Shown here: piece by piece, positions 8,160 through 40,668 of the stretch
How the letters are laid out: each line of letters starts with the position of its first letter
Numbering within the stretch: the stretch's first letter is position 1
Assembly (NCBI GenBank): GCA_964363945.1
Contig: CAYIKF010000001.1
Coordinates: 1 to 55,663 of the forward strand
Reading direction: 5' to 3'
Origin: an uncultured Gammaproteobacteria bacterium
Lineage (GTDB): Bacteria > Patescibacteriota > Microgenomatia > UBA8517 > JACQJR01
DNA: 55,663 bases
Position numbers and translations under genes: made by a program
The notes under the pieces: generated by a model
What the model was told of the DNA's origin: nothing
What the model saw: only the letters and a program-made list of their open reading frames with translations
Database searches by the model: none

Positions 8160-8177
8160 ATATTCATATATGAATAT
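8160..8177. repeat. 18-bp perfect palindrome ATATTCATATATGAATAT that fills the whole intercistronic gap
   Basis: Read directly. It is bounded by the TAA stop of 8178-9881 and the ATG of 6486-8159. Confidence 0.85.
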
Positions 8178-9881: not shown

Positions 9882-9888
9882 TGAATCA
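9874..9888. repeat. 15-bp palindrome TGATTCATTGAATCA that overlaps the start codon of 8178-9881
   Basis: Read directly (7+1+7). The ATG at 9879-9881 lies inside it. Confidence 0.75.
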
Positions 9889-9889
9889 T

Positions 9890-11575
9890 TTAAATAGTTT
9901 TCTCCAAAATATCAAACGCTGGTTTGTTGTCTAGAAAGTTTATTGTTTGTAACAATCTCCAGCCAGATGGATAGTTACCCGGACTCGTAATAAGAAGTGT
10001 TTTACCACTTAAAGGAACAATTCCGCCACTTTCCATCCGCCAGCTGGCGGAGCCATCACGCGGGATTTCCCAATCATTTACAAAATAAAACTTATCAAAT
10101 CTGTCCACCCAGTACCAATTTGATTGTGCAAAACGGATTAAATTTGGGTCCTGCCTATACTTTTCCGGATCCCATGGCCAGTAAAACAATAAAAACTCAT
10201 GCGGTTCGCCATATTTTTTGGTCATAATAATTTGGTTATATCCATTGTAATGCCCTTTTATAAATTGTACTGCTTCCTTGTACCCATACTGCCACGACCA
10301 TGAGTAATTAGTTCTATATGGTCCCACATACTCCCTCGCATAGTTTTCCATAAAATACAAAAGAAGAACAACATATATTATGCTAAACAATAATTTTAAA
10401 TTCTGTTGTTTAAACCATGCCCAGAAGGTAGCTAAACCTAACGCAACAAATATTTGTGGAAGCGGAACTATAGTTGTAGCACGAATAACATGAAACTCAC
10501 CTTGAGTAATACTGGCTGGAATAAGACCTAAAATTAGCCAAAAGAACAAAAAAGTTTTTTCCGATCTCTTCTTCTTAAACACTGCTAAAGCAACCAACGT
10601 TAAACCTACATAAAAAAATGGCGCGTTTATTGGATAAAGTATTCCTTTATCTGGAACGCTGAATTGATAATTAGATCCTCCCGAAGTAAACAAAAATCTA
10701 GGAGAAAAATAACCAATAAAATTTTTTCCAAACTCAGAGATAAAAAAGCTGTATCTATTGTATAGTAAGCGATCGATTGGCTCGGGAAGATTAGACTTTT
10801 CGCGCATTTCTATAATTCTCGCTATACTTCCCTCATCAAGCAAGAAAACCCATTTAGATCTGGCCCTTCCTTCCTGACTTGTAAAAACAAAATATAGCGG
10901 AACAAGAAAGGCAATTAATATTAAGAGTGAGGAAATAAAAACTTTATTTTGTTTAAATATCGAGGCTTTAAATTCTTTAAACCAAACAATACCAACCACT
11001 AGCAATAGTAATGGTACAAATATTCTCGTATTGTGATAAGAATACAGAGAAAGGCCCACGGAGATTGCTGAGGTAGGTAGAAAAAGAAAATGTTTTTTTC
11101 TATATAGAAAAAGGGCAACTCCCGTTATTAAGAAAAATGAAGCTACATTTGATTGAAATACAGCACGCGAGGGGAAAAACATCCATGGATCAATTGCAAC
11201 AAAAAGTGCAGCAAGAAGCGCTACTGTTTTCCCAAATTTGAGTCCATAAACTAAAAAGTAAGTAGATAAGATAATTGCTGTACCTAATATAGCGTGTGGA
11301 AATCTAATGCCAAATTCGTTAAGTCCAAATAATGCAATACTTGGAATAGTTAAATAAAGATTGACGGGCAAAGGATAATCTCCATAGGCGCGAAAATTTG
11401 TAAGTGGTAAAAACTCTCCCCATTCATCCTTGCCTGTTCTCAGGATAGAATAAGCGTTATAACCATGTGACACTTCATCCCAGTTAAGACTTGGTGGAAG
11501 TTGTCCAAGCCCAATAAAGCGAATTAGTAAACCAACCGCCAAGATAATAATTATTGCTATCCTATCTCTACCCAT
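9890..11575 (-). CDS. GT39/PMT-family membrane glycosyltransferase, paralog 3
   Basis: 561 aa with NWDEVSHGYNAYSILRTGKDEWG and a C-terminal YGEPHEFLLFYWPWDPEKY. 8-nt overlap with the upstream gene. Contains the TCCGCCAGCTGGCGGA palindrome (peptide SASWR). Confidence 0.8.
   Translation of the reverse strand: MGRDRIAIIIILAVGLLIRFIGLGQLPPSLNWDEVSHGYNAYSILRTGKDEWGEFLPLTNFRAYGDYPLPVNLYLTIPSIALFGLNEFGIRFPHAILGTAIILSTYFLVYGLKFGKTVALLAALFVAIDPWMFFPSRAVFQSNVASFFLITGVALFLYRKKHFLFLPTSAISVGLSLYSYHNTRIFVPLLLLVVGIVWFKEFKASIFKQNKVFISSLLILIAFLVPLYFVFTSQEGRARSKWVFLLDEGSIARIIEMREKSNLPEPIDRLLYNRYSFFISEFGKNFIGYFSPRFLFTSGGSNYQFSVPDKGILYPINAPFFYVGLTLVALAVFKKKRSEKTFLFFWLILGLIPASITQGEFHVIRATTIVPLPQIFVALGLATFWAWFKQQNLKLLFSIIYVVLLLYFMENYAREYVGPYRTNYSWSWQYGYKEAVQFIKGHYNGYNQIIMTKKYGEPHEFLLFYWPWDPEKYRQDPNLIRFAQSNWYWVDRFDKFYFVNDWEIPRDGSASWRMESGGIVPLSGKTLLITSPGNYPSGWRLLQTINFLDNKPAFDILEKTI
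10036..10051. repeat. 16-bp perfect palindrome TCCGCCAGCTGGCGGA in a short GC-rich patch (copy 1 of 3)
   Basis: Read directly. It is translated as SASWR in GT39 paralog 3. Confidence 0.9.
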
Positions 11576-14944: not shown

Positions 14945-14961
14945 TACCTAAATTGTAGCAT

Positions 14962-16572: not shown

Positions 16573-17849
16573 TTTTTAATTACTTTTGGAGATTTAACGA
16601 AGCTAACATAAACATATAAAAACAGTGTCGTAACTACTCCACCTAATATTCTTGGCAACAACCTATCCCAAGCTGACATAAATTCTATTAGCCACTCTAT
16701 CCTTGGATACCACCAGAAGTTATACAAGTTTAATAAATAAATCACCGAAATAGATATTAACAAAGGGAGCCATTTTCGCTCAAGTGCTGTAATAATTGTA
16801 AGTAGCGGGAATATTGGATAAAGGTATCGCTCGTGCATTCCTGTTGCAAGAACAAATATAGAAAATAAAGTTAAAAAACAAACCCATAAAATGTTCTGGA
16901 AATCGAATTTTTTGTAAACTTTAACCAGCAGTGGAATAAATGTTATCCCAAACAAAATATAACCCCACGTTCTAAAATTCAATAGCCCTGCCATTAACGT
17001 ATCTGGCCTTTCATGAATACCGGTGAGAGCCGCCCAAAAATTAAATGCATTTGCAGTAATCAAATGAAGCTGCCAACCGAAGACTTTATCTTTGTAAAGA
17101 TTAAAAAGCCAAGAAAAAGGTTCACCTGCCTGCGCAGGCAGGCCAGAAAAGGGAAGAGTTAGAATCCCAATAATTACAAGTGGAATACTTATTGCTTTTA
17201 TCCAAGTATTTACTTGATATCTCTGTCGCCATGCAATAATTAAAAATATCGGCAACAAAATACCAAGCGAGGCTTTAATAAATAAAGAAAGAGAGAGAGA
17301 GAGAAAGGAAAAAACGAGTTTTCGCTCAAGCAATAAAAGTAATGAGAGTAATCCAAAGAAATTTATGGTAGCATCTGTTTGACCCCAAATACTTGAGTTG
17401 TACCACGTGATGGGATTAACAAGAAATGCCATTGCTGCCCACGCGCCGATTTTTTCTTTACCCTTTTCTCTGAAGAACAAAAATATCAAATAAGCGATTC
17501 CCAAATCGGCGAGTATCGCAGGTAATTTCAATAAACTCGGATATAAATTTGTCTCAAAAAAAAGCATTATATTTGAGGGGAACAGAGGAATATTTATGTT
17601 GATAAACCAGAAAAAAGAAAAAACTGCCTCAAAAATTTTTCTTACTGCCGCAAATATATAAATAGTACCCGGTGGCTGATTGGGCCAGGTAAAACTCCAA
17701 ACATTAGCTTTATAAAACTCTCCCGGGCCATACTGCCAAAAACGAATTCCCCAGTCCACATGATTATTGACATCCGGGTGCCACACCAAAAAGGCAAGAG
17801 TAATCCGAAAAACAAAAGCGAGTAAAATTATCTTGTAAATACCTTTCAT
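16569..17849 (-). CDS. Polytopic membrane protein, putative GT-C glycosyltransferase (ALG6/8- or GT87-like), family uncertain
   Basis: 426 aa. The motifs WSFTWPNQPPG, SSIWGQTDATINF and ITANAFNFW are shared with the paralog at 31235-32596 (VYSWPTQPPL, GSVWGQTDQVSF, STNAFNFW). 4-nt overlaps on both sides. Confidence 0.5.
   Translation of the reverse strand: MKGIYKIILLAFVFRITLAFLVWHPDVNNHVDWGIRFWQYGPGEFYKANVWSFTWPNQPPGTIYIFAAVRKIFEAVFSFFWFININIPLFPSNIMLFFETNLYPSLLKLPAILADLGIAYLIFLFFREKGKEKIGAWAAMAFLVNPITWYNSSIWGQTDATINFFGLLSLLLLLERKLVFSFLSLSLSLFIKASLGILLPIFLIIAWRQRYQVNTWIKAISIPLVIIGILTLPFSGLPAQAGEPFSWLFNLYKDKVFGWQLHLITANAFNFWAALTGIHERPDTLMAGLLNFRTWGYILFGITFIPLLVKVYKKFDFQNILWVCFLTLFSIFVLATGMHERYLYPIFPLLTIITALERKWLPLLISISVIYLLNLYNFWWYPRIEWLIEFMSAWDRLLPRILGGVVTTLFLYVYVSFVKSPKVIKK
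17124..17141. repeat. 18-bp perfect GC-rich palindrome CCTGCCTGCGCAGGCAGG inside 16569-17849
   Basis: Read directly. It encodes LPAQAGE. Confidence 0.85.
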
Positions 17850-19654
17850 TTATTATTTTGGGGATTAAGTGTAAACAAGTAAAATACTGGCTCACCTGAT
17901 GGATACGGAATTGCCTTCACAAGCGTTAAGTTCTTTGGTAATCTTTCCGGTTCTTGAATAAAGTTTATATTAAATTCCTTCGCGCTCGCCAGATATAATG
18001 TTTTTTCATCTAAAAATTCTGCCAGCGAATAAATTCCGCTTTTTGGTTGGGCAGTTCCAAAATAAAATTTATCAATATAGGAAATTTCCCCAAACCCACG
18101 AATTTCCTTCTTCTTAAACGGATAATTTTCATGCCACTTTTGAGGCGGATACTCATACCAACCCGCAAAAAATATCCAGGGTGGTTCATCAGCAGTACTA
18201 ATAATTATTCTATCGTAGTTACCCTCTACCTCCTTTACACCGTTTATTGCCTCGCCAAATCCAGCGTGCCACCATCGTTCCGAATCCCAAGGATAATGAA
18301 CCCAATAGTTATGTTGATATGAGGCAAAACCGAATAAATATAACCCTGCAATACTCGCTACGGCTACCTTAACATATCGTTTTTTAACGAGTTCAATTAT
18401 TTGAAATATCCCCAAGGTGTTAAGAAGTATAAGCGGTGGTAAGAAAAAAAATAATCGCGTAGCATGCATACCTCCGTCTCGAGTTAACGCAGCAGGAATG
18501 GGTGCCGCAAGCAACCAAAAAATAAGGAAAAATTTTATCTTTCTATCAAGCTGACTTTTGAAAAAGAAAATCATACCCGCTAACAAAAACAAAATCTCAA
18601 ATCTATAAAACTGCCCAAAATTTTGGAGTGAGTGTCTCAAATTAAGATCGCCTTCAAGGAAAAGAAAGTGGGTTGAGAAAGACTGAAGGTAATTGCGACC
18701 CAAGACATTTGTCCAAAAAAGCACTTTGTTGTGAGCTGCGCGGTCAATTATTTCAGGTTGGACGCCAAATTCTACCCCAGGGGTACGTATCATGGCATCC
18801 CGCAACCGGGCAAATCCTACCTCAGGAATTGTTGTTGGATCGGTAAAAACCGACAAATAACTGAAACGCTCTGTACCACCGCCAAAAATAGTGCTCGCGG
18901 CAATTGGGCCACCAATTACAACAAGGGCAATAGCCGACCACACCAGCCACTTCTTGCCGATACCAAACAATTCTTTTCTCCAAATAACAAGAAGTGCCAA
19001 GAGTGTAAGCGGGACAAAAAATTTTGCAGTGCTATACACCCAGGGTGCGAGAGCAAAACAAATTGCTGAGAGAGGAAGCCATTTACCACTCTTGAGCCCT
19101 TTTAAGAATAACCATAAACCTGCCAAAAAAAACGCAAGCATTTGGGTTACCTCAAATCCAGCTCGAGAGTATTGAATGTGCCATGGAGAAATTGCCAAAA
19201 GCGCTGCTGCAATCAGTGGTAAGGCGGGTCCTGCCAGTGGTTTCCCTCCCGCCAGTGCTCTCCGCCAGCTGGCGGATGCGCGCGTGTCGGGATCCCTTCC
19301 ACCCCTGTCACCCGCCAATTTTATCAATTCCCCAACCAACAAATAAAATAGCCACACCCCCAATATCCCAAAAATAGCAGCAGGCAGCCGAACTCCTAGG
19401 GGTGAAATTCCAAAGATTGCAACCGTAGGAACTGCAGAATATAAATAAAGTGGCGTTCTCCATTCAGCCAAACTCTGAAAATGAAGTGGCCACGGATTCC
19501 CCGAGTAATCCTTGCCTGTCTTTAAAATTGAATATGCGTGATACCCTACATCAAGCTCATCCCCAAACAGGGAAACAGGTACTTCTGAAATTTTCCATAA
19601 TCTCAAAAACGAAGCAATAATCAGAATAATTACCAATACTATTTTTTTATTCAT
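17846..19654 (-). CDS. GT39/PMT-family membrane glycosyltransferase, paralog 6, with a GC-rich in-frame insertion
   Basis: 602 aa with FGDELDVGYHAYSILKTGKDYSG and SPWHIQYSRAGFE. The C-terminal domain ends in YPSGEPVFYLF. The loop before SPWH carries a 94-bp GC-rich palindromic element (19223-19316). Confidence 0.8.
   Translation of the reverse strand: MNKKIVLVIILIIASFLRLWKISEVPVSLFGDELDVGYHAYSILKTGKDYSGNPWPLHFQSLAEWRTPLYLYSAVPTVAIFGISPLGVRLPAAIFGILGVWLFYLLVGELIKLAGDRGGRDPDTRASASWRRALAGGKPLAGPALPLIAAALLAISPWHIQYSRAGFEVTQMLAFFLAGLWLFLKGLKSGKWLPLSAICFALAPWVYSTAKFFVPLTLLALLVIWRKELFGIGKKWLVWSAIALVVIGGPIAASTIFGGGTERFSYLSVFTDPTTIPEVGFARLRDAMIRTPGVEFGVQPEIIDRAAHNKVLFWTNVLGRNYLQSFSTHFLFLEGDLNLRHSLQNFGQFYRFEILFLLAGMIFFFKSQLDRKIKFFLIFWLLAAPIPAALTRDGGMHATRLFFFLPPLILLNTLGIFQIIELVKKRYVKVAVASIAGLYLFGFASYQHNYWVHYPWDSERWWHAGFGEAINGVKEVEGNYDRIIISTADEPPWIFFAGWYEYPPQKWHENYPFKKKEIRGFGEISYIDKFYFGTAQPKSGIYSLAEFLDEKTLYLASAKEFNINFIQEPERLPKNLTLVKAIPYPSGEPVFYLFTLNPQNNK
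19223..19316. repeat. 94-bp GC-rich palindromic element: inverted termini GGCGGGT/ACCCGCC, central TCCGCCAGCTGGCGGA at 19261-19276
   Basis: Read directly. The element is symmetric about the core and strongly GC-rich against the AT-rich background. It is translated in frame as AGDRGGRDPDTRASASWRRALAGGKPLAGP. Confidence 0.8.
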
Positions 19655-19706
19655 ACCTTTTCCATTGTATACATTAATATGTTAAAGTTTATCAGGGATT
19701 ATTAAA

Positions 19707-21212
19707 ATGCCTAACATACGAAAATTTATCAACTATGCAAAAAAACATCCCCATTTAGTATTACTTTGCCTTATTCTTATAATCGCACTTTTTTTCAGAG
19801 CTTACAAGCTTATAGAGTGGTTTGAGTTTGCTCAAGATGGTGATCTTTATTCTTGGATTGTTAAGGATATTGTCGTCGATAAACATCTCAGGCTTATCGG
19901 GCAACTCACCACCGCTCCCGGCATATTTATTGGTCCTGCTTTTTATTACATACTTATCCCATTCTTCTTAGTTGCCCACATGGATCCAGTGGGAGCCGTT
20001 ATACCTATAACGCTCATGGGTGTATTGACTGTCGCGAGCTACTACTATGTATTTTCAAAACTCTTCAACAAAGAAGTGGGCCTCGTGGCAGCATTTTTAT
20101 ATGCCATATTACTTTCCCTCGTAATCTTTGACCGCCGCGTTGTGCCAAGCACTCCCACAAACTTGTGGCTTGTTTGGTATTTTTACACAGTTTTAATGAT
20201 TAGACGGGGCAACTTTTCTGTACTTCCTTTGCTTGGTGTTTTAATCGGACTGATATGGCACATCCATATTGCGCTTGCTCCAGCCCTTATAGCTGTACCC
20301 GTGGCACTGGTTCTCTCTGGCAAAATTCCCCCCTTGAAGAAAATTTTTCTATCTATCTTTGCTTTTTTTGTTATCTCCACACCGCTTATTTTTTTTGAGG
20401 CAAGACATAATTTTTCTCAGACAACAAGCTTTATCCAAAATCTTTTCATAAATCAAGGAGGAGGAACAGGATTTGAAAAAATGCAGCTTGTTATTATCAA
20501 GATGGTCGGAGATATTATTCGTTTATTCTTCTATCCTCAAGGCTTACCGTTTATAAATCATTATTTTTTTGTTGCGCTGCTGTTTCTGTCAGGGTTATTT
20601 CTTGTTAAGAAACAACTTCTTCATATTCGTGAATTAACGATTTTTTATGTATGGACGGGTACTATTGTTCTCTTCTATACATTCTCCTCAACTATAATCT
20701 CAGAATATTATTTTGCAAATATTGAGATTATCTTTTTAACTATAGCTGCCCTTCTTCTTTATTCGCTCTATAAATCCTCACGGCCTGGCAAATACTGGAC
20801 AATAGGCATACTACTTGTAGTCTTTTTCAAAAACTCATTCTTTTTTTTAACAACAGATATTTACCATAAAGGATATGTAGAGCGCAAAGGAGTGGCAGCT
20901 TTTATTACAGAAGACGCTCGAAAGCACGATTTGCCCTGTGTTGCAATCTCGTATATTACCTCCCCGGGAGAAAATGTAGGATTTCGCTATTTCTTTTTTT
21001 TGAATAACCTAAAAACAACTCAAATTCAAGAAGGAGCGGCAACTTACTCAATTGTACTACCACCTCATCTTGCGCAAGGTCAAAATGAAAAACTATTTGG
21101 TCAAATAAAAATTATACCTCCTGAAAAAATTCCTCCTACAGCAGAAATTACTAAAAGCTGTAGTGGCCAAAATACAAATCTAACTGATTCTCTATTTGGC
21201 TTTACTGACTAA
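19707..21212 (+). CDS. Polytopic membrane protein, uncharacterised GT-C-like family B (D-x-G-R-D type), the only plus-strand gene inside the locus
   Basis: 501 aa. QDGDLYSWIVKD...LRLIGQLTTAPGIFIGPAFYYILIPFF aligns by eye with the signature of 23533-25089, 41436-43052 and the C-terminal part of 43052-45277. Confidence 0.55.
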   Translation: MPNIRKFINYAKKHPHLVLLCLILIIALFFRAYKLIEWFEFAQDGDLYSWIVKDIVVDKHLRLIGQLTTAPGIFIGPAFYYILIPFFLVAHMDPVGAVIPITLMGVLTVASYYYVFSKLFNKEVGLVAAFLYAILLSLVIFDRRVVPSTPTNLWLVWYFYTVLMIRRGNFSVLPLLGVLIGLIWHIHIALAPALIAVPVALVLSGKIPPLKKIFLSIFAFFVISTPLIFFEARHNFSQTTSFIQNLFINQGGGTGFEKMQLVIIKMVGDIIRLFFYPQGLPFINHYFFVALLFLSGLFLVKKQLLHIRELTIFYVWTGTIVLFYTFSSTIISEYYFANIEIIFLTIAALLLYSLYKSSRPGKYWTIGILLVVFFKNSFFFLTTDIYHKGYVERKGVAAFITEDARKHDLPCVAISYITSPGENVGFRYFFFLNNLKTTQIQEGAATYSIVLPPHLAQGQNEKLFGQIKIIPPEKIPPTAEITKSCSGQNTNLTDSLFGFTD

Positions 21213-27506: not shown

Positions 27507-28542
27507 ATTTAGCTTGCGAAAATTGCTGTGCTCGTTTTTTACAAGTTTTGGAAAATTTTATTCTTTCTTTCTCATCTTTAATGAGACGCACTGTTTGCTC
27601 TCTAAGTTCGTTTCGTGAATCCCATAGAATTCCATTTATCCCATTCTCAATAATCTCACTATATCCCCCCTTGTTGTTTACTACGGGAACACACCCTGCG
27701 GCCATCGCTTCGACCACCACTATCCCGAAGTGCTCAACCTTTTCTGGCTCTTTTTCCTCGTTAACTCCAAATCCTGATGCTGACCAAAAAATTTTTGCCC
27801 TACCATATAGTTTTTTAAGTGCTTCAAAATCCGGATTTTCAATAATCTCAATTGGGTAACCTCTAGTTTCAAACCTCAAACTTCTAGCAAATTCTTCTCC
27901 TCCAATATCACTTCCTCCTGCAAGAATAAGCTTCCACCCTTCCAAACCCCCATCAACCATTTTTTTGAATACCGACACTAATACATCTTGCCGTTTTGCT
28001 TGAAGTAGTTGAGAAAACCTTCCTATGGAAAGAATAATATTTTCTTTTTTACCCTGCTTGCCAACAGGCAGGGTATTAAATTCTTCCACGTCAACCGGAG
28101 GATACACAACCACACTATTTACCCCATATTCTTTATCAATAAATTTCTTTGTAAATTTTGAATTACATACAACTTTATGAATTCTTCTTAACTTCAATCG
28201 ATTGAAAAGCGATTTTCCGCTCACATCATGAAATGGAACTTGAAAGTGAAGAATATTTTTCTGGGCATATAAACGTGGAATACTTCCATCTGATAACCAA
28301 AAACACAAATCATATTCTCTTCCCTTATGAATGCCAGAAACAACTCTTACACCAGATAAGTCTAGCCCCAATCTATCTTCCAGCTTTTTTAATATTCCAG
28401 CATCATCCCATTCTACATCCACCTCCCACCCATTCTTTTCCAAAACTTGAGCAACTGTCATCACATACCGTTCCCCACCACCAAGAGTATCCAAATATGG
28501 ATTGTAAATTGCAGCCCTCATAGCCTTCTTTGCATTTCCCAC
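27475..28542 (-). CDS. Glycosyltransferase family 4 (GT-B)
   Basis: 355 aa with LDTLGGGERY at the N-terminus and VEHFGIVVVEAMAAGCVPV (E-x7-E). The probable true start is Met-8 at 28521, which gives an ATGA overlap with the upstream stop (28518-28521). Confidence 0.85.
   Translation of the reverse strand: MGNAKKAMRAAIYNPYLDTLGGGERYVMTVAQVLEKNGWEVDVEWDDAGILKKLEDRLGLDLSGVRVVSGIHKGREYDLCFWLSDGSIPRLYAQKNILHFQVPFHDVSGKSLFNRLKLRRIHKVVCNSKFTKKFIDKEYGVNSVVVYPPVDVEEFNTLPVGKQGKKENIILSIGRFSQLLQAKRQDVLVSVFKKMVDGGLEGWKLILAGGSDIGGEEFARSLRFETRGYPIEIIENPDFEALKKLYGRAKIFWSASGFGVNEEKEPEKVEHFGIVVVEAMAAGCVPVVNNKGGYSEIIENGINGILWDSRNELREQTVRLIKDEKERIKFSKTCKKRAQQFSQAKFEDEILKVIL
28051..28074. repeat. GC-rich hairpin ACCCTGCTTG-CCAA-CAGGCAGGGT (one mismatch) inside GT4 27475-28542
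   Basis: Read directly. It shares the CCTGC...GCAGG arms with 17124-17141 and encodes LPVGKQG. Confidence 0.7.
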
Positions 28543-29369
28543 AACTTAGCATACGTCGCAAATCGACTCCATCCTTGATAAATTGAAAAGATAACACCGG
28601 GTACTCCATCCAAAAAACCAAGCTTCAGTATCAATCGATCAAAAATCTCGGTAAAAACAGGACGGAAAAACCTCCACCATGTCATTTTCGGATGACCACT
28701 CTCAAGTAAAAGCTTTGCTTCAATCCTAGACCATTTATTAGTTTTTTGAACCATATCTGAAAGGTTATCCTCTTTTAAATGGATAAAGGGATTTTTTAGA
28801 AAGCCCGTTTCGCCGCTAATTTTGGGTTGTTCATGGAGCTCTCCTTCCCAACGAATTAACTTATCACGAAGCATCAATCGCACCACATAATCCGGCCACC
28901 AACCGCCGTGATGCAACTCTTTTCCAAAAACAAAATTTCGGCGGGGAATTGCAAAAGCAACATAGGAAGGTGACGGGTGGTGCGAGCGGAGGGAGTCCCA
29001 GCGAGCGCCCGCAATCCGCCAGCTGGCGGACGAGGACGTCGGCTGGGACGAGCGAGCAACAGGACCCGTCACTGATTCAATTTCTCCCCTTAATTCAGGT
29101 GTCACTCTCTCATCCGGATCTATATAAAAAAGCCATTCACCTTTTGCTACCTCTTTTCCCTGATTTCTCCATGTATCAAAACTTCCCGGTTTTTGTTTGA
29201 ATATTCTCGCTTTATACTTCTTCCCAACCTCAAGTGTTTTATCGGTTGAGCCACCGTCAAGCAGAACAATTTCTCCCATCCCTTCCACCAGATGGTGGAC
29301 AGATTCTAAACATTCAGGTAACTTTTCAGCAGCATTTTTTGTAAGAACGACAATTGATAGCTGTATCAT
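28518..29369 (-). CDS. Glycosyltransferase family 2 (WaaE/KdtX-like), interrupted in frame by a 103-bp GC-rich palindromic element
   Basis: 283 aa with LSIVVLTKNAAEKL, LLDGGSTDKT, IDPDE and HHGGWWPDYVVRL. The segment PVARSSQPTSSSASWRIAGARWDSLRSHHPSPS has no counterpart in the paralogs 5606-6484 and 30327-31223. Confidence 0.8.
   Translation of the reverse strand: MIQLSIVVLTKNAAEKLPECLESVHHLVEGMGEIVLLDGGSTDKTLEVGKKYKARIFKQKPGSFDTWRNQGKEVAKGEWLFYIDPDERVTPELRGEIESVTGPVARSSQPTSSSASWRIAGARWDSLRSHHPSPSYVAFAIPRRNFVFGKELHHGGWWPDYVVRLMLRDKLIRWEGELHEQPKISGETGFLKNPFIHLKEDNLSDMVQKTNKWSRIEAKLLLESGHPKMTWWRFFRPVFTEIFDRLILKLGFLDGVPGVIFSIYQGWSRFATYAKLWEMQRRL
28970..29072. repeat. 103-bp GC-rich imperfect palindromic element: termini GTGACGGGT/ACCCGTCAC, inner TCCCAGC/GCTGGGA blocks, central TCCGCCAGCTGGCGGA at 29015-29030
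   Basis: Read directly. It is translated in frame in GT2 28518-29369, again with SASWR at the core. Confidence 0.85.
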
Positions 29370-31234: not shown

Positions 31235-32596
31235 TTACCTGAATTTCTCGAGTATTTGAAGCCTAGGCATCTTTACGCCAAAAATGTAGAGCATCTTGAC
31301 AAATAAAATAACATTTGCCAAAGAAAGAAGTCTTGTTATAAACCCTCCCTGCCACTCAAAAATTGTCTTCAAACTTATCAACCATTCAGGAAACCACCAC
31401 TCGTTGTACAAATTAAGGAAAAATATCAAACTTACACCTAACCAATAAGGAAGAAGCTTTGGATAATATATTGTACTTATAAGTCCAAATACGACTCCTG
31501 CAAAAAAATAGCGTCCAAGCATATTCGTTAAGAAAAGCCAGCCTCCTGCTCCGACGATAAAAAGAGCAATAAATAAACCTTTTAAGGTTTTCTCTTTTGT
31601 AAATCTGAATGCCAGCAGATTGAGAAAGAAAAATACAATGTAACCCCAAATTTTAGCCGGTACAAAAAGAAAGAGAGCCTCTTGATTAAGCGCACGATTG
31701 CCGATTAATATATGCCAAAAATTGAATGCATTTGTAGAAACTCTAAATTCCGACTTTAAGAAAACTTTCTCAAAAAGTTCTTCGCCAAAAATAAATATAT
31801 TTTTATCGGTAAAGGAAAAAATAAGAACATAACATAGCGTCAGGACAAAAATAAAACCCATCAAAATCTCATAAAGTTTTGGTTTGTAAATAAAATAGAA
31901 CCATGAAAATAATGGCACAAAAATAAGAACTGTCGGCTTGATGCCGAAACTAACAAAAAAGAGTAGTGGTGCAAAAACAATTTGCCCCATGATTATTGCC
32001 AGAAACGAGGCAAACAAAGGAACAAAACTCACCTGGTCAGTTTGACCCCAAACGCTCCCGATATACCAGGAAAAGGGAGAAAGGAGATAAAGTCCTGCAA
32101 GTAAAAGCCCAGTCAGGCGTTTTTTCCCTGCGAGTAAATACAGAGTTATTCCAATAATTAGATCAGCAAAAACAGAAAGTAGTTTCAAACTGATCAAGGC
32201 ACCGGTATTAAAGCCAGTTGCACCGGTCCAGAAAGAAGTAAATTTCTCCATTCCAAACCATCTCGTGAAATCAAACCACCAGATAAAATACGTTGGTGCA
32301 AGACGATGTATCGCGATGAACGTACTTATATTGACAAATAAAGTTTTCAACCATTCAAAAAGGTCGAAAGAAAATGCATACAGCAAATTAACAAGAGGTG
32401 GTTGTGTGGGCCAGGAATATACCCAAATAGAATTGTCATAAAATCCTTTTGGGCCGTTTTTAAAAATCCATTCTCCCCAACCGGCGTTACTTAAAATATC
32501 GACATGGAATCCGCTATTAATAACGGCAAGCCGTAGAGCAAGAGAAATAAAAATCAAGACTAACAAAGGCAGAAATTCTCTAATTTTCTTAATCAC
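31235..32596 (-). CDS. Polytopic membrane protein, putative GT-C glycosyltransferase, paralog of 16569-17849
   Basis: 453 aa. Shares the WPTQPP, WGQTD and NAFNFW motifs with 16569-17849. Confidence 0.5.
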   Translation of the reverse strand: MIKKIREFLPLLVLIFISLALRLAVINSGFHVDILSNAGWGEWIFKNGPKGFYDNSIWVYSWPTQPPLVNLLYAFSFDLFEWLKTLFVNISTFIAIHRLAPTYFIWWFDFTRWFGMEKFTSFWTGATGFNTGALISLKLLSVFADLIIGITLYLLAGKKRLTGLLLAGLYLLSPFSWYIGSVWGQTDQVSFVPLFASFLAIIMGQIVFAPLLFFVSFGIKPTVLIFVPLFSWFYFIYKPKLYEILMGFIFVLTLCYVLIFSFTDKNIFIFGEELFEKVFLKSEFRVSTNAFNFWHILIGNRALNQEALFLFVPAKIWGYIVFFFLNLLAFRFTKEKTLKGLFIALFIVGAGGWLFLTNMLGRYFFAGVVFGLISTIYYPKLLPYWLGVSLIFFLNLYNEWWFPEWLISLKTIFEWQGGFITRLLSLANVILFVKMLYIFGVKMPRLQILEKFR

Positions 32597-34341
32597 TAAT
32601 TCTTTACCTCATAAATAGCAATTTCTTCGTTTTCAAAAATATTCTTAATGCCAAGCTGTTCCCCCCCCAGTCTAAATCTTTGATCAAATACCGGAGTCTG
32701 GCTAAGCGCCAGATAAAGATAGCGGATGTTGTTCTCATCCAAAAATTGCCTAGCCCAAGCCTGGTCTAGAGTGTCAAAAAGAATTTTTGCATAGTCACGG
32801 CGCTGCCTCCAATTAAATCCTGTTATATCTAAGTTAACCTCATCTTCAATAAAAACAGATTTCTTGGAGAATGCAGAAACGTAGGCCGTTGATTCATAAA
32901 GATAAAGCGGGCGGGGAGGATTATTCACTGCGAGTTCTGCTTTATAGCGATCAAACGGATAGGTAAGTACCACACCATCCGGTTGTTTTTCCAAAAACAT
33001 CAAAGCCTCCATCTCTTCATTTGAGATCTTTGCTGGGGGACGCATTGGTAGATAATGAAGAAAGAGTGTACTAACCGTTGTAGGAATAGTAATTAAAATT
33101 AAAAAGATAATAGCCCACTTTTTTAGTTTCTTTTCTTCAATAAGTTTCCCAACGAAAATCCCTGAGTAAATTACAAAAACAAAAAGCGAATAATAAAAAA
33201 ATTGGATTGTATTCCATGGAGTTCCAGCTTGAAGAATAGTCATTGGTAAAACAATTCCTAGCAATGCAATCATTAGAAGGAAAATATCAATCTCGGAAAA
33301 GTTCCTCCACGCTTTGCTCTTAACCATCCCCCACAAACCAATCAAACGTGTTCCCATATTACCAACAAAAAATATGACAAACGCCACAAGATACGCGAGG
33401 ATCAGTTTTATCAATATGCCCCCTGTTTTGTAATTCATCATCGCTCCATAAAATCTATCCCACCCGACTCTATCCGACACTGCCATCATCGTCTCCAAGA
33501 ACCAAAATGGTTGAAAAACAACTAATTGCCTTACAGACTTACCAGTTAGCCAGAGCAATGCAGCTCCAAGTAAAAAAGACCCTAAAAGAACTACCAATAA
33601 ATTACTTTTTAATACGAATTTTCTAGCATGGATTATTCCGAATAGTACCACCAACCCCAATCCTCCCATCACAAGTAGCCAAGCATAAACTTTAATTTGT
33701 GCCAATAAACCGAAAATTAAAATCGTAAATCCCACTTCGTAAATCCTAAATCTATTTTGAAGACGCAGTAAAAGAATCATCCCTAAAAGAATTAAAACAA
33801 GTGATAGAGCAAATGGCGGGTTAATGAGCGTTGATATTGCCTGTTGAGCCCAGAAAAGAGATTCTCCACCGATAACACCATCACGAAACAATGTAACGAC
33901 CCATCCAAAATCCCCTGCAAAATAAACAAAGAATGTCGCCCAGAATGCCTGTGTTCTTGATTTCCTCCAGACAGAAACAAACCTGTACGTCAAAACCCCA
34001 ACCAAGACTGCAAGTATCGGAGGGAGAATTTGAAAGTAAAGTGTATGGGCTGGAATACTCGTGATTTTATGAACGACAGCTAATACAAGGTCAAAACCGA
34101 TATGATAATTGCGAATAGGTTCTCCTGCAAAAATAGGCATTTCAAGGGAACCCCGAGATAGGTGATTAATTAATGCAATATGCCAAACTCCATCATGCCC
34201 ATTCGGTCCCCAAAATCCCATACCAAAGGAATATATAAGACCGCTTTTTACCATAGTAAGACTCCAGCTCAGCGAGCCTACTAAAACAAGCAGAATTACT
34301 CCAATGTTTTTATTAACCCTTTCTAAAAGTAGCATATACAT
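32596..34341 (-). CDS. Large polytopic membrane protein with a C-terminal soluble domain, function unknown (possible polymerase or GT-C)
   Basis: 581 aa with about 12 hydrophobic helices. The N-terminal loop is FWGPNGHDGVWHIALINHLSRG. The soluble tail is about 140 aa. I recognised no family. Confidence 0.4.
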   Translation of the reverse strand: MYMLLLERVNKNIGVILLVLVGSLSWSLTMVKSGLIYSFGMGFWGPNGHDGVWHIALINHLSRGSLEMPIFAGEPIRNYHIGFDLVLAVVHKITSIPAHTLYFQILPPILAVLVGVLTYRFVSVWRKSRTQAFWATFFVYFAGDFGWVVTLFRDGVIGGESLFWAQQAISTLINPPFALSLVLILLGMILLLRLQNRFRIYEVGFTILIFGLLAQIKVYAWLLVMGGLGLVVLFGIIHARKFVLKSNLLVVLLGSFLLGAALLWLTGKSVRQLVVFQPFWFLETMMAVSDRVGWDRFYGAMMNYKTGGILIKLILAYLVAFVIFFVGNMGTRLIGLWGMVKSKAWRNFSEIDIFLLMIALLGIVLPMTILQAGTPWNTIQFFYYSLFVFVIYSGIFVGKLIEEKKLKKWAIIFLILITIPTTVSTLFLHYLPMRPPAKISNEEMEALMFLEKQPDGVVLTYPFDRYKAELAVNNPPRPLYLYESTAYVSAFSKKSVFIEDEVNLDITGFNWRQRRDYAKILFDTLDQAWARQFLDENNIRYLYLALSQTPVFDQRFRLGGEQLGIKNIFENEEIAIYEVKN

Positions 34342-35806
34342 TTTTTAAATCTGATAAAACTTGCTCGCCGACAATAACATAAAGTAATAGAAGATAAAAA
34401 GCTATCCCTGACAAAACTAGAATAATTATTCCGAATAAATTTAATGGGATAATATTGCCAACCAGGAATACAAAAACACCCATTACTAAACTTGCAAAAA
34501 CGGGCTTGCCTACGCTTTCCAGAAAATTAAATCTCACAAATCGGACAGCCCACAAGATTGCAAAAATAGAGCTTGTTCCAACAATTGCAAAGCCCAATGC
34601 AGCTCCGTTAATGTGATAAAGAGCGGCCAGCGCTGGTACGAGCAGCCACGTAAGCGTAGTCCACATAATCATGAGTCTAAAGGTAACTGTAATTTTGCCA
34701 ATTGCAGTCAGCATATTTGTAAGAGGGGTTGTCACCGCTGCCCACGCACTATTTATCGTAATAAGTCCAAGCGCGAAGAGTGCCGGTTGCCATTTATCAT
34801 ACTTAGGAATTACCTCTGTTAGTGGCCCTGCAAGAAGTACTAACCCTATAAGTGAGGGGAATACGAGAGCGCTTACGAAAAAAATAGAACGCGAAACCGC
34901 ATGGGACAATTCTTTTTTATCATCCTGGAGACGCGAAAATGCAGGGAAAGTGACTTTTATCACCTGGTCCATAAAAAAACGTAGCGGGGCCTGTGCCCAC
35001 TTTTGCGCCCAGCCCAAAAGTCCGACTCCCGCCGGCCCAAGAATCCCACCCAAAACCATAGTCATACCATCATCTTTTGCAACGGCCAAAAACGTATTTG
35101 CTTGATAGGGGAGACCAAAACGCAGTAGTCTCGCAAGGGGACCCCTTGCGAACGCAAAACCGGGCATCCAAGGCTGGAGGATGTAAATTATAATAAGACC
35201 AGCAATCCCTCGGACAAGGACGGCAACTGTAAAACTTGTTATTCCCGCTCCTCGCCACGCAAGCAAAACCGCAACTCCATAAAACAAGAATGTTTCAATT
35301 ATTTGAGGAATTATTAACTTTTCAAACTTTAACTGTCGCTCAAGAATGACAGAAGGGATGGTTTTAAGTGAGGACAAAAAAAGCGATGCGGCAAGCGCCC
35401 ATAAAAGATACACTGATTGCTGGCTGAACCCATACAACTTTTGGAAAAGCGGCGTTGCGGCAACGATAATAAGCACCAAAAGTATTGTCAAACCCTGTTG
35501 AATAGTAAATGTGGTCCGTAATTCTTCGTCACGCGCCGCCTCTTTCTTTTGAATAAGCGCAGCAGCCAAGCCAATGTCAGAAAAATATGCAAAAAAATTA
35601 ATAACCGCCGACACTAAAAAGAAAACCCCATATTGTGTTGGAGTAAGGAAAATGGTGAGAAGAAACGTGGCAGCAAGCGCAACTGCTTGCAGAATTGCCG
35701 TCCTACCGGTGAGCGCCACGACTCCCCTTACCGTCCGCTTCTTTACCGTCTCAAGAGAAATTTCCTCTGTTGGTGCCAAATGTTCGCCAATTTCAACTCT
35801 GGCCAC
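34313..35806 (-). CDS. Wzx/PST-type polysaccharide flippase (MOP superfamily)
   Basis: 497 aa with about 14 TM helices. The N-terminal region VKKRTVRGVVALTGRTAILQAVALAATFLLTIFLTPTQYGVFFLVSAVINFFAYFSDIGLAAALIQKK is the typical opening of Polysacc_synt-type flippases. Confidence 0.75.
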   Translation of the reverse strand: MARVEIGEHLAPTEEISLETVKKRTVRGVVALTGRTAILQAVALAATFLLTIFLTPTQYGVFFLVSAVINFFAYFSDIGLAAALIQKKEAARDEELRTTFTIQQGLTILLVLIIVAATPLFQKLYGFSQQSVYLLWALAASLFLSSLKTIPSVILERQLKFEKLIIPQIIETFLFYGVAVLLAWRGAGITSFTVAVLVRGIAGLIIIYILQPWMPGFAFARGPLARLLRFGLPYQANTFLAVAKDDGMTMVLGGILGPAGVGLLGWAQKWAQAPLRFFMDQVIKVTFPAFSRLQDDKKELSHAVSRSIFFVSALVFPSLIGLVLLAGPLTEVIPKYDKWQPALFALGLITINSAWAAVTTPLTNMLTAIGKITVTFRLMIMWTTLTWLLVPALAALYHINGAALGFAIVGTSSIFAILWAVRFVRFNFLESVGKPVFASLVMGVFVFLVGNIIPLNLFGIIILVLSGIAFYLLLLYVIVGEQVLSDLKNVYATFRKG

Positions 35807-35821
35807 CCTTAAATTGTAACA

Positions 35822-37303
35822 TTATTGGATCCTAGCAACTAAAGAATACACTTTCTCCTTGGGAAGATCTTCTGGAATTCCACCAAAATCTTCATAAAAC
35901 ACTCGGAGCGTTGGGTCTTTATAAAAAAGTTGAAGCGCATCTTCTTTGTTTAAAATAAACGCGGCTTGCTTTGAACTTCCTCCCCAATCACCTGAAATCT
36001 TGGGATAATTTGGGTCATTAGTGAAGTAAACAGCAACACCTTTCGGAAGGTTAGGATATTTTACTTTCACTTCATTTACTAATTTTTGTGCAATTCGACC
36101 ACGGTTTGCAGCAGGATATGTTTTATCAGCAAGTGCAATAGAGATTACAGAAAGCAGGAATAATGACAAAAGAAATACACCAGCCAAAATATTAATCATA
36201 GCCCCACTTCTTTTCTTTAACCAGCTATAAGCACTAAATACTACTAACCCTACCGCCCCCCAAAACGCTGGAAGTGCCGGGGTTAAATAATATGTTTGCT
36301 TATGAAGGGGTAAAAGAAGAACAGGTGAAAGCGCAATAGGAAACCAAAATAAAAGAAACCAAAACTTTCTGTCTTTTATTGCTCTACGAAAAACAAAAAC
36401 TGCACTTGCTGTAAAAATTGTCACTGCTATACCTCCAAAAAAGAAAATACCCGAAGCATAATCTCCCCAAAATTTCATAAGATTTGGGTTAAGGTTGAAT
36501 CCAGGCTCCACGAAATCAATAAACATCTCAGGAATACCAAGGGCCCAGAGAGAGTACCAAGACAGCGAGTTAAGAATTGTTTTGGGGGATAATGTCGGCT
36601 GATACTGCGCTTCAGCGGAAGAAAACCCAATAAGAAAAAGGTCTAAGTATAAGAAAACAGACAAAACAACAAAAAACGGTATGGTTGCCTTTACATCTTG
36701 CTTAAGTCTTTTTTGAACAAACAACAATCCCAGCAAAAGTAATGGTGTTACAACTGCTAGCTCATGCGAACCAAGCGCTAAAATGAACGCAAAAAATGAC
36801 AATAAATACCATTTCCCACCTTGCTCGAGCCATTTCCAAAATGAAAGCAATGTCAGAAGCACAAAAGTTGTTGCTCCCAATGACTGCACTCCTCCCGCAA
36901 GATAGTACAAACTTCCCACATTTGCAGCGGCTATTCCAAAGAAAAATGAGATGAAGAGTGCCAACTCCCTTTTTTGAAACAATTTCTGCATCAACAAGTA
37001 CACAAGACCTACATTTAAAAAATGGATGCCAATTGAAAGAATTCTAAACGGGAGATGGTTTAAACCAAAAAGAGAATAGAAAATATTAAATAATGCTTCT
37101 CTAAAGACTGGCCGATAAAACGCAATTCCCCGCTCGATAAATGGATGAAATCCGAATAGATTAAGAAAACCACCGAGTGTCCCATCAGTTTGGCTTACTT
37201 TAAAATGGAAAAAATCATCATGGGAGAAATAAACAGAAAAGACAGGGTGATAAAGTACAAAAATTGTCCCTAAAATGATAAAGAAAACCCAATGCAATCT
37301 CAC
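35822..37303 (-). CDS. Polytopic membrane protein, putative GT-C glycosyltransferase (DD first-loop motif)
   Basis: 493 aa. The first loop FSHDDFFHFKV has an acidic dyad like PMT_2/TMTC-type GT-C enzymes. The C-terminal soluble domain is about 100 aa. The family call is weak. Confidence 0.4.
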   Translation of the reverse strand: MRLHWVFFIILGTIFVLYHPVFSVYFSHDDFFHFKVSQTDGTLGGFLNLFGFHPFIERGIAFYRPVFREALFNIFYSLFGLNHLPFRILSIGIHFLNVGLVYLLMQKLFQKRELALFISFFFGIAAANVGSLYYLAGGVQSLGATTFVLLTLLSFWKWLEQGGKWYLLSFFAFILALGSHELAVVTPLLLLGLLFVQKRLKQDVKATIPFFVVLSVFLYLDLFLIGFSSAEAQYQPTLSPKTILNSLSWYSLWALGIPEMFIDFVEPGFNLNPNLMKFWGDYASGIFFFGGIAVTIFTASAVFVFRRAIKDRKFWFLLFWFPIALSPVLLLPLHKQTYYLTPALPAFWGAVGLVVFSAYSWLKKRSGAMINILAGVFLLSLFLLSVISIALADKTYPAANRGRIAQKLVNEVKVKYPNLPKGVAVYFTNDPNYPKISGDWGGSSKQAAFILNKEDALQLFYKDPTLRVFYEDFGGIPEDLPKEKVYSLVARIQ

Positions 37304-37306
37304 GGC

Positions 37307-39025
37307 CTACATTCTAGCACGCGAAAGCCGTTTCCTCCACCATGGAAGCGCAATAAGTATTCCCCAAGAAACAAGAGAAATTAAATTTCCAGCGGTGCGG
37401 GGAAAAGTATTGTAGAGTTTGGCGTAAATTTCGTGCTCGCCTTCTGGAATGGTTATGTGCATTCGACCTAACTCGTCATTATCTCCGGTAATTTCTGTTT
37501 CTTCCCCGTCAATAAATACTCGCCAATTTGGAAATTGAAAAATATTTATTCGAACCTTTCCCTCACCTCTATCCACTCTTACCTTAAATCTTATCCAATT
37601 AGTTCCTTCTTTTGCCTCGTCTATAGCTACCTCACCCTCAACAACATCAACTGGCGTTAGTCTTGGCCCTTGAGGTGCAATTCTTGCTGTTTTTGGGAGA
37701 TAATCATAAATCCCCGCCGTCTGTTGAAGCTCCCACGCAGCGGCTGAGAATTTTTCCTCGTCACTTAAAGGACCCATGCGATCAGGTTTGAAGTAGTCAT
37801 TGTTAAACAACACTACTGCAACCAAAAGTATGATAACTAAAACTAACGTCCACCTACTTCTTACATTAAGAAGCACAGCGAGCGCTCCTATAACAAATGA
37901 AAAAGAAAGAATGACAATTGTTAAAAATCGCCAAGGAAACTGAACAATAGAAAGGAATGGTAAACTTAGCCAAATGGGAGTTGAGCGCACATGGGCCATG
38001 AAGGCGGCGGCGAAGCCAACTACAAGTAAATAGCTAATAATTAACAGTAAATTGGGTGAAATCTTTTGTTTTCTAAGAAAAACAGCTGCTGATAAAGTAG
38101 CAATTACTAGTGCCAGTATCCAGTGTATATGCCCAATTTGGAACGACATCCCGTCACCCTCACCCCACACGGATGGTCCATAGCCCCAAAATCGAGAAAA
38201 AAACAATTGATTAATATCTGCAAAATGGGCAATGTATTCGTAATATCCTTTTGTGAGTGTATCGACGTGTACCAATTTCTGCTCCAGAAGAACCGGAATA
38301 CTTGAAAAGCTAGCCAATCCTGCAGCCCATATACCTGAAATCATAAGTTGGGGAATTCTGCTCCACGCATACTTTCGCCACAACCAAAGTAAACACCAAC
38401 CAGCAAACACCGGAGTAAAGATAAGTACCATAATATTGTGCGACAAAAGGAGTGCTGTCCATGAAAGCGCTAGAATAACAATCCAACTTGTTACTTGTTT
38501 CTTATTACTTATTAACTTATACGCGCTCCACAAAATAAGCGGAAACCACACCAACGCCCATGCCTCATTCATTGCTCCCCGCACATAAACATCAACCGCA
38601 TGATACGGAGCCCACACATAAAATACACTCGACAGTACCCCGCCAAGCCGGCCCCAAAATTCGCGCGCTAAAATATACATCGTTACTGCGGACAACAGGA
38701 AACTCAAGAAAAAGGTGAGCTTCACCGTCGTAATAAAAGAAACACCTGTGAGTCTTATCACCTGCCCTACCAGATAGGGGAGTGGCGGATAGTAGTTAAA
38801 GAGTGGAAATCCATACCCATACCCCATATCCGGTACCCAACGGCAGGGAATTTGAAAATCTTTAAAGCACTTCTCCATCTCAAGCTGGCGCATCATTTGT
38901 AAATCGTCATGCATGTTGAAGTATCCAGATGTGAGCAACACGCGACCAGCAAGAAATCCTAAAAATACTACCAAGACAAGTGGCCAAAAATTAGGATGAC
39001 TCGTAATTCTTCGCAAGAATTTCAT
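37307..39025 (-). CDS. Polytopic membrane protein, YfhO/PTPS-related-type, paralog of 11568-13247
   Basis: 572 aa. MHDDLQMMRQLEMEKCFKDFQIPCRWVPDMGYGYGFPLFNYY parallels the N-terminus of 11568-13247. The C-terminal FQFPNWRVFIDGEETEI...GEHEIYAKLY plus a terminal TM helix is YfhO-like. Confidence 0.55.
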   Translation of the reverse strand: MKFLRRITSHPNFWPLVLVVFLGFLAGRVLLTSGYFNMHDDLQMMRQLEMEKCFKDFQIPCRWVPDMGYGYGFPLFNYYPPLPYLVGQVIRLTGVSFITTVKLTFFLSFLLSAVTMYILAREFWGRLGGVLSSVFYVWAPYHAVDVYVRGAMNEAWALVWFPLILWSAYKLISNKKQVTSWIVILALSWTALLLSHNIMVLIFTPVFAGWCLLWLWRKYAWSRIPQLMISGIWAAGLASFSSIPVLLEQKLVHVDTLTKGYYEYIAHFADINQLFFSRFWGYGPSVWGEGDGMSFQIGHIHWILALVIATLSAAVFLRKQKISPNLLLIISYLLVVGFAAAFMAHVRSTPIWLSLPFLSIVQFPWRFLTIVILSFSFVIGALAVLLNVRSRWTLVLVIILLVAVVLFNNDYFKPDRMGPLSDEEKFSAAAWELQQTAGIYDYLPKTARIAPQGPRLTPVDVVEGEVAIDEAKEGTNWIRFKVRVDRGEGKVRINIFQFPNWRVFIDGEETEITGDNDELGRMHITIPEGEHEIYAKLYNTFPRTAGNLISLVSWGILIALPWWRKRLSRARM

Positions 39026-40656: not shown

Positions 40657-40668
40657 CCTTCAATTATA

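Follow-up and report, generated by a model that had tools for sequence, protein, structure and literature searches.

Results

GC-rich hairpin elements in three glycosyltransferase genes

The 55,663-nucleotide (nt) stretch of DNA analyzed here (contig CAYIKF010000001.1 of GenBank assembly GCA_964363945.1; below, the window) carries two complete copies and one eroded remnant of a GC-rich imperfect-hairpin repeat, each inside a glycosyltransferase gene. Our results indicate that the repeat belongs to a dispersed family found mainly in bacteria of the candidate phyla radiation (CPR), whose genic copies are read in frame, and that it probably works like the Rickettsia palindromic elements (RPEs). 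The copies, their tips and their host genes are listed below, with scores from a covariance model, R1, which was built from 30 copies of the family.

28970..29072, minus strand: complete element of subtype A (the 29k element), sense to its family-2 glycosyltransferase (GT2) host, translated as TGPVARSSQPTSSSASWRIAGARWDSLRSHHPS; R1 82.8 bits, E = 6e-21
29015..29030, no strand: tip mini-palindrome TCCGCCAGCTGGCGGA of the 29k element, an exact match; the orthologous element of locus L003 has another tip
28518..29369, minus strand: host gene 1, family-2 glycosyltransferase, 283 aa; insert at about residues 100-133, with the PF00535 match ending at residue 92
19221..19318, plus strand: complete element of subtype B (the 19k element), antisense to its PMT_2 host, translated as AGDRGGRDPDTRASASWRRALAGGKPLAGPA; R1 83.5 bits, E = 3.9e-21
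19261..19276, no strand: tip mini-palindrome of the 19k element, identical to the copy at 29015
17846..19654, minus strand: host gene 2, GT-C/PMT_2-type membrane glycosyltransferase, 602 aa; insert in a short turn ahead of the conserved AISPWH motif
10020..10072, plus strand: eroded remnant with an intact 16-mer (10036-10051), flanked by decayed subtype B inner-arm motifs TTCCGCCAC…/…CGCGGGATTTCC; outer arms lost
9890..11575, minus strand: host gene 3, PMT-type glycosyltransferase, 561 aa; eroded remnant near the C-terminus

A preliminary description of this DNA had reported three copies of a perfect 16-bp palindrome, all read in the same frame. We found exactly three exact matches to TCCGCCAGCTGGCGGA in the window, at 10036-10051, 19261-19276 and 29015-29030, where dinucleotide shuffles give a chance expectation of 0.04 even with up to 3 mismatches, and all three are read as SASWR in minus-strand open reading frames (ORFs). 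The sharp contrast with the AT-rich background was likewise confirmed: 19194-19325 and 28950-29081, whose tips are the 19k and 29k 16-mers, are the top two GC islands of the window (GC 0.73-0.75 versus a mean of 0.39 in a 60-nt scan). Each island folds as one long hairpin, both as RNA (z -3.5 to -5.5; -58.5 kcal/mol and z -5.5 for the 29k element) and as DNA (z -3.3 and -2.5 for the two elements), in agreement with the long symmetric elements that had been drawn around these two 16-mers. The window arms GTGACGGGT/ACCCGTCAC, GTCCCAGC/GCTGGGAC and GGCGGGT/ACCCGCC are all present as described. The second element exists, but its limits, first placed at 19223-19316, shift to 19221-19318 under the covariance model. 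Model R1 detects exactly two copies in the window (E ~1e-21), and the 29k element also matches the two-arm pattern given below. Because the 29k element aligns to the reverse complement of the 19k element, the former is sense and the latter antisense to its host. The 10036 remnant was not detected by R1 and was assigned by eye against subtype B copies; with its tip and decayed inner arms kept and its outer arms gone, it fits the earlier view of a shortened copy.

The elements are insertions at sites that are empty in most orthologues

The additional residues said to be missing from relatives are indeed missing. The D.DER-to-PRRN spacing is 31-37 aa in 81 of the 97 GT2 relatives in which both flanking motifs are present, versus 62 aa in the window. 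For PMT_2, the RLP-to-SPWH spacing is 42 aa in most of ~110 orthologues, whereas the window and a single other orthologue have 71 aa; the 19k element thus adds 29 aa to the common loop. The copy at 10036 gives ~12-15 extra residues relative to paralogues. The window elements are insertions, and most GT2 and PMT_2 orthologues have an empty site. In the AlphaFold model of host 1 (mean pLDDT [predicted local distance difference test] 86.5), the sole segment below 50, residues 111-132, falls in the insert, which is placed between a helix and a strand and is predicted to be a disordered surface loop. At the empty GT2 site of locus L002 (~1130-1170), the heptanucleotide CGCCATA stands three times in tandem exactly where relatives carry the element.

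The conserved unit is a constrained hairpin with a variable tip

We compared the DNA of GT2 orthologues at the same loop (L001 and L003 to L007) and found a GC-rich insert in most of them. These inserts have common ends, CGGGTCCTG … CACCCG, and different interiors, and the L003 element is the 29k element of the window with another tip, TTCCGTGTTTTGTCGGAA. Because the orthologous inserts share their ends and differ inside, the 16-mer is only a tip. It is therefore not the family-defining core that the preliminary description took it to be; the family is set by the termini and arms.

An alignment of 30 copies shows the conserved unit to be an imperfect hairpin of ~70-150 nt, R-CGGGTCCTG…covarying stems with fixed bulges…CACCCG-Y, in which the feet CGGGT…ACCCG are invariant. 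The left side begins with R-CGGGT, followed by a fixed 3-nt bulge (CCT), a G:C pair, one Y·Y mismatch and a 7-bp stem of free sequence. Next comes a conserved arm, CTCGTCCC-NN-CCGACGTCCTC in subtype A and TTCCCTCCCGCCAGTGCTC in subtype B, and a fixed unpaired GTCCTC or GTGCTC precedes the tip, a freely variable stem-loop that in this genome is the 16-mer. On the 3' side follow the complementary arm with an unpaired NCCCTCC or CCCTTCC, the second half of the 7-bp stem, and Y-CACCCG-Y. Copies have two to four stems, the sequence of which varies while complementarity is kept. Some copies are more elaborate. Those at L004 8513-8613 and L071 968-1081 and 5610-5734 have a longer tip composed of another palindromic module, …CTCGGGGCAAGC…CCTGAGCG.AGTCGAAGGG, which translates as …GQAS…PERSRRV-like peptides, and the left arm of L117 6476-6606 contains two nested small palindromes, TCCGCCAGAGGCGGA (close to the window 16-mer) and CCTGCCTGCGGCAGGCAGG.

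The hairpin is maintained by compensatory change. In the alignment of 30 copies, pairing in the two outer helices reached 86.3% (71.5% in shuffles), with a covariation score of 0.43 versus 0.17 that none of 500 shuffles reached (slid controls, ≤0.14). Among 18 subtype-A copies, 92.5% pairing was found over 32 pairs, 17 of which show changes on both sides (covariation score 0.33 versus 0.15; slid controls, ≤0.10). Wobble pairs occur only on the CGGGTCCTG strand (one pair is G:U in 10 of 30 copies, and another is U:G in 11 of 18), so this strand folds better than its complement.

Outside the feet, the first five positions are paired in 37, 33, 21, 19 and 25 of 47 copies, in order of distance; beyond them, pairing falls to chance level. 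None of the 47 copies has a flanking direct repeat of at least 3 nt, the flanks being complementary to each other instead, and no conserved target motif flanks these copies apart from a tendency to G then R at -2/-1, pairing with +1/+2. In the copies listed, CACCCG is not followed by a T-run, and the hairpin was for this reason rejected as an intrinsic terminator. A bulge-helix-bulge intron or ribosomal bypass was also rejected, given the single 3-nt bulge, the frame kept by read-through and the two length classes modulo 3 described below.

The family is dispersed in CPR genomes and beyond

For searches, the family was also described by a two-arm pattern, GGGTCCTG-N40-70-GGGAYNCCYTCC-N8-CACCCG, as an alternative to model R1. 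After verification on known copies, this pattern identified 39 metagenome loci, while R1 gave 56 matches in 337 kb of related loci. When the right-arm pattern alone was run on GTDB genomes, the matches listed were mostly chance matches in GC-rich genomes, and among them were at least 13 two-armed copies in at least 12 loci. From the metagenome loci and the GTDB genome matches listed, we catalogued 50 distinct copies in CPR (Microgenomates-type) contigs and metagenome-assembled genomes (MAGs), a family defined by CGGGTCCTG…CACCCG. The claim that the element has colonized loops of glycosyltransferase genes in this genome thus stands in part: such loops do tolerate it, but it is neither specific to glycosyltransferases nor confined to this genome.

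The MAGs with GTDB copies are mostly named Patescibacteria, Curtissbacteria, Blackburnbacteria or Saccharibacteria, and a few "uncultured Gammaproteobacteria." The last label looks wrong for L001, L031 and L090 (GCA_964442455.1) and for L070, L089 and L106. L001/L031 is shown to be a Microgenomates-type CPR genome by its gene order and by proteins 66-78% identical to those of the window; with L070, L089 and L106, only the low GC and the element are shared. Two further copies, both intergenic, were found in 68%-GC soil or rhizosphere contigs (L131 534-628 and L147 190-289), in sense orientation 10-11 nt past the stop codon of a lepA-like gene and an ABC ATPase gene, respectively. Since these are clear members, the family is not confined to low-GC CPR genomes.

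The two-arm pattern had no matches in IMG/VR, a BLAST search against plasmids and phages gave none, and Rfam gave none at the gathering score or at E up to 10. An origin from signal recognition particle (SRP) RNA ("Alu-like") was considered and rejected: the base of the hairpin resembles Escherichia coli ffs by eye, but R1 does not match ffs and the Rfam SRP model does not match the element. A HMMER search of cluster representatives with the encoded peptide returned 5 matches, of which 3 were genuine: RNase HII, a two-copy GT-C protein and a fragment. Such a search is too insensitive for a census. A search of a word-indexed protein database with the padded peptide alignment gave 13 candidates, none of which scored. 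In the literature searched, we found no description of such an element in CPR bacteria, and the family is apparently undescribed so far.

Genic copies are read in frame in unrelated proteins

Thirty-six of the 50 copies (72%) lie inside ORFs of at least 150 aa, always in frame. Their hosts are unrelated and include GT2, GT-C, a SufC-like ATPase, CarB, ArgRS, LeuRS-like proteins, TrxB, YchF-like, RecG-like and PHP/EndoQ-like proteins, and RNase HII; one GT-C protein has two copies. The six frames of the element are mostly stop-free. Even so, frame use is uneven: 24 of the 36 genic copies are read in a preferred sense frame, 4 in the second sense frame and none in the third, and 8 are antisense. 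In the preferred frame, xxG GGT CCT gives T/A/S-G-P, and the 24 copies encode a peptide of the form T/A-G-P…SS.PTSS…. After orthologues were collapsed by eye, the preferred frame accounted for ~16 of 27 independent events. Measured from one fixed end to the other, the copies have lengths of two classes modulo 3, giving …RDSLRSRHPS or …LDGTPSA.ATR after the tip. The host frame is kept in both classes, which argues for read-through and not precise excision, because excision at fixed ends would break the frame. From this conservation of frame, we infer that the element is translated through. Our results show that a copy within a gene persists only if the insertion as a whole leaves the frame intact and is placed in a loop that tolerates it. 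Copies occur in intergenic DNA as well, and among ~19 of these, 10 start 3-20 nt (one 56 nt) after an upstream stop codon, in sense orientation.

Signs of turnover and decay, and solo mini-palindromes

Three near-identical copies (L134, L153 and L157) occupy different sites of one contig. The copies of L136 and L139 are also near-identical, in different genes and opposite orientations, with one compensatory change from C:G to T:A. These cases point to recent spread within genomes. Conversely, one site can hold different copies. The same GT2 loop contains subtype A, subtype-B-like and other elements in different orthologues; the same PMT_2 loop has subtype B antisense in the window, B sense in L031 and A sense in L005; and a PHP/EndoQ-like loop has B antisense in L090 and A sense in L135. 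Stages of apparent decay were found too. The L006 copy keeps both feet and has its centre deleted, PMT_2 orthologue loops of intermediate length resemble eroded remnants (for example, ATGLAASRHPLH), and the 10036 copy of the window is another case. The GT2 site of L002, in contrast to its relatives, is empty.

Parts of the unit also occur by themselves. In L077 (~4503), L140 (~922), L151 (~9453) and L001 (~10300), a solo left-end fragment (GGGTCCTGTC, with or without the first stem) precedes a complete copy by 5-13 nt, and the SGPVAG motif is thereby encoded twice. The 16-mer stands alone in AT-rich ORFs of L001 (19156-19171) and L004 (7262-7277), where it is again read as SASWR; the L001 instance is flanked by an 11-nt direct repeat inside a heptamer tandem repeat. 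In an RNase HII fragment, a subtype-A copy carries the 16-mer at its tip. Another 55 matches to the 16-mer alone in viral contigs, none of them inspected, were taken as chance matches in GC-rich DNA, and for this reason the 16-mer alone is not diagnostic. The window holds a second mini-palindrome of this kind.

17125..17142, no strand: perfect 18-nt GC-rich palindrome CCTGCCTGCGCAGGCAGG, alone and in frame (…GLPAQAGE…) in a 426-aa membrane ORF (16569-17849)

This 18-mer is nested in a composite element of L001 (10444-10461) and occurs alone in L160 and L158, with a flanking 12-nt direct repeat at L160 3722-3739. In a hot-spring lineage, the tip CCCTCCGAATCGGAGGG likewise recurs alone. Three solo mini-palindromes have flanking direct repeats of 11-16 nt and most have none (7 of 79, versus 2.7% in controls). 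Tips are genome-specific and common to subtypes A and B within one genome, and thus follow the genome rather than the subtype.

Discussion

The element of the window represents a dispersed GC-rich imperfect-hairpin repeat family that is probably translated through in the manner of RPEs. Our best reading is that of a selfish hairpin repeat, apparently unrelated to RPEs in sequence and found in another host. The preliminary description had proposed an RPE-like or MITE-like family (MITE, miniature inverted-repeat transposable element). The first half of this proposal is upheld by in-frame copies in unrelated genes, empty sites, covarying stems and a predicted disordered loop. The second half is not, as target-site duplication was seen in 0 of 47 copies, and "RPE-like" is for this reason the better term. 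The element would probably spread and be recognized as a folded single CGGGTCCTG strand, on which some enzyme may act as in hairpin-dependent single-strand transposition, a process that leaves no target-site duplication. A genic copy would then simply be translated, usually as a disordered peptide rich in Ser, Pro, Gly and Arg. Resident copies may later be flipped, swapped or homogenized through recombination among near-palindromic copies, with final decay through hairpin deletion and drift towards AT.

Several points weigh against this interpretation. Movement itself is not demonstrated, because the copies show neither a target-site duplication nor a conserved target motif, and no near-identical pair of filled and empty sites among the compared loci sets the exact ends. 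In the inspected loci (3-21 kb per genome), we saw no transposase or other partner, no RAYT (REP-associated tyrosine transposase) or TnpA gene, and no parent insertion sequence for the invariant CGGGT/ACCCG feet. Complementarity in variable sequence 2-5 nt past the feet is not predicted for a transposon with fixed ends. The case for translation is based on frame conservation, not proteomics. Finally, the sense bias (~29 versus 13, genic and intergenic copies pooled) and the G·U pairs, which favour the transcribed strand, would also fit a role at the RNA level.

Such a role is the main rival to a selfish, translated repeat. A structured RNA could act within or just after mRNAs, possibly through ribosome pausing, mRNA stability or processing, or could spread via an RNA intermediate. 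This would account for unpaired motifs that are conserved while the stems covary, from CPR genomes to the 68%-GC contigs, and for wobble pairs restricted to the transcribed CGGGTCCTG strand, although in DNA hairpins, too, no mismatch is more stable than G·T. It would equally suit the predominance of sense copies in genes and the position of 10 of ~19 intergenic copies, sense, just after a stop codon. It fits poorly with the antisense genic copies (8 of 36, including the 19k copy of the window) and with hosts that are unrelated housekeeping genes, most orthologues of which do without the element; nor did Rfam offer a match even at E up to 10, and the hairpin has no T-run. We therefore consider an RNA-level role unlikely.

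More improbable still is that the family is not transposable and consists of a few ancient loop insertions, between which sequence is passed only by gene conversion or through template switching inside the palindrome. The occupation of the same loop in orthologues of three gene families, with differing subtypes and orientations, would follow naturally from such exchange, as would genome-specific tips common to subtypes A and B within one genome, and covariation could arise if one arm templated the other. Each new site, however, would need a pre-existing homologous recipient, whereas copies with unrelated flanks occur between genes and in 15 or more unrelated genes, and one contig has near-identical copies at separate sites.

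The preferred frame and the recurring motifs (GP..SS.PTSS, AGARRDSLRSRHPS) might suggest that the encoded peptide is itself the selected product, a Ser/Thr/Pro-rich linker or a modification site on host proteins. We regard this as very improbable: compensatory changes in the stems keep base pairs and alter residues, copies occur antisense, in other frames and between genes, the segment is predicted to be disordered, and most orthologues manage without it. The sharp break in composition against the AT-rich background could point to an assembly chimera or GC-rich contaminant reads, an explanation that, like a core limited to three sites, the preliminary description had named as fatal to its own proposal; as independent assemblies (NCBI, ENA, JGI and Logan) contain the same family at orthologous sites and reading frames are intact on both sides of each insert, its probability is negligible. 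The core, for its part, was found at further sites.

Going beyond a selfish RPE-like repeat, we can imagine, though with considerable doubt, a strand-specific structured nucleic-acid module with fixed bulges and covarying stems, shared from CPR to high-GC bacteria, that homes to existing hairpins or copies, perhaps by a new single-strand or RNA-mediated mechanism, and is a main source of loop-length variation in CPR proteins through insertion and erosion. Homing of this kind would explain the re-occupation of loops in either orientation, the nested genome-specific tips and the solo left ends upstream of complete copies.

Among known systems, RPEs are the closest in behaviour. They are palindromic repeats of ~100-150 bp, often in frame in unrelated metabolic genes, and encode a conserved peptide compatible with the host fold (PMC10969869). 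The family described here shares dispersal of a palindromic repeat, here of 70-150 nt, and in-frame insertion into unrelated ORFs with a recurring peptide; the mode of movement is not known for RPEs (PMC10969869), and likewise here. It differs in its host, CPR/Microgenomates and not Rickettsia, and in being strongly GC-rich in AT-rich genomes. The likeness concerns described properties; no sequence relation could be shown, and we do not file the family as a member of the RPEs. The family further has invariant feet, fixed bulges, a modular variable tip, copies in both orientations and turnover of subtypes at one loop.

Repetitive extragenic palindromic (REP) sequences and REPINs, which are mobilized by RAYT (Y1 HUH) transposases, and elements derived from IS200/IS605 are alike in being hairpin repeats with conserved strand-specific unpaired nucleotides and no target-site duplication, and a REPIN, like the family here, pairs two inverted arms around a variable centre. 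REPs have a GTAG or CGTC head (PMC3733652); they are palindromes of 20-40 nt and extragenic, whereas the head here is CGGGT (R-CGGGTCCTG) and 72% of copies lie inside ORFs. Unlike IS200/IS605, no conserved target tetra- or pentanucleotide lies 5' of the element in 47 copies. Bacterial MITEs (Correia/NEMIS, ERIC, Nezha and QMITE) are small and nonautonomous too, show inverted symmetry and at times give rise to in-frame fusions (PMC10969869), but the family here lacks their target-site duplication (0 of 47).

Other parallels are more distant. Yeast mitochondrial GC clusters and "byp" elements are short GC-rich palindromic mobile islands in AT-rich genomes, some of them inside protein genes. The GC clusters are organellar and shorter than the elements here, and byp elements are skipped by the ribosome, whereas the frame conservation seen here points to read-through. 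Integron attC sites, as imperfect hairpins of 55-140 nt recognized as folded single strands, with extrahelical bases and a variable terminal structure, resemble the family as well, but their RYYYAAC/GTTRRRY core sites and cassette context are absent from these elements, which lie inside ORFs.

In-frame palindromic repeats in essential genes have so far been best known from Rickettsia, and an apparently unrelated constrained family in CPR bacteria suggests that protein loops evolve by this route more widely among bacteria with small genomes. The family explains odd low-complexity segments of predicted CPR proteins ("GP..SS.PTSS / SASWR / LPAQAG") and domain matches that end in mid-gene, and the covariance model can be used to mask such segments in annotation. 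With its conserved bulges, preferred strand and repeated use of the same sites, it also offers a tractable case for the movement of hairpin repeats without target-site duplication. If the homing idea were true, cycles of insertion and erosion would be a main source of loop-length variation in CPR proteins.

Genomic context of the window

Two further GC islands of the window, 34975-35054 and 45848-45924, were tried as copies and rejected (covariance model E 2.7-8.4). A single glycosylation cluster, co-directional on the minus strand, takes up nearly all of the window (6486-21212 and 31235-45277). At least a dozen of its long ORFs are of PMT, PMT_2 or GT-C size, and seven of these were confirmed by Pfam or alignment. 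The cluster also contains GT2 and GT4 (family-4 glycosyltransferase) genes and a large ORF where relatives encode a YfhO-like protein. The cumulative GC skew falls steadily across the window.

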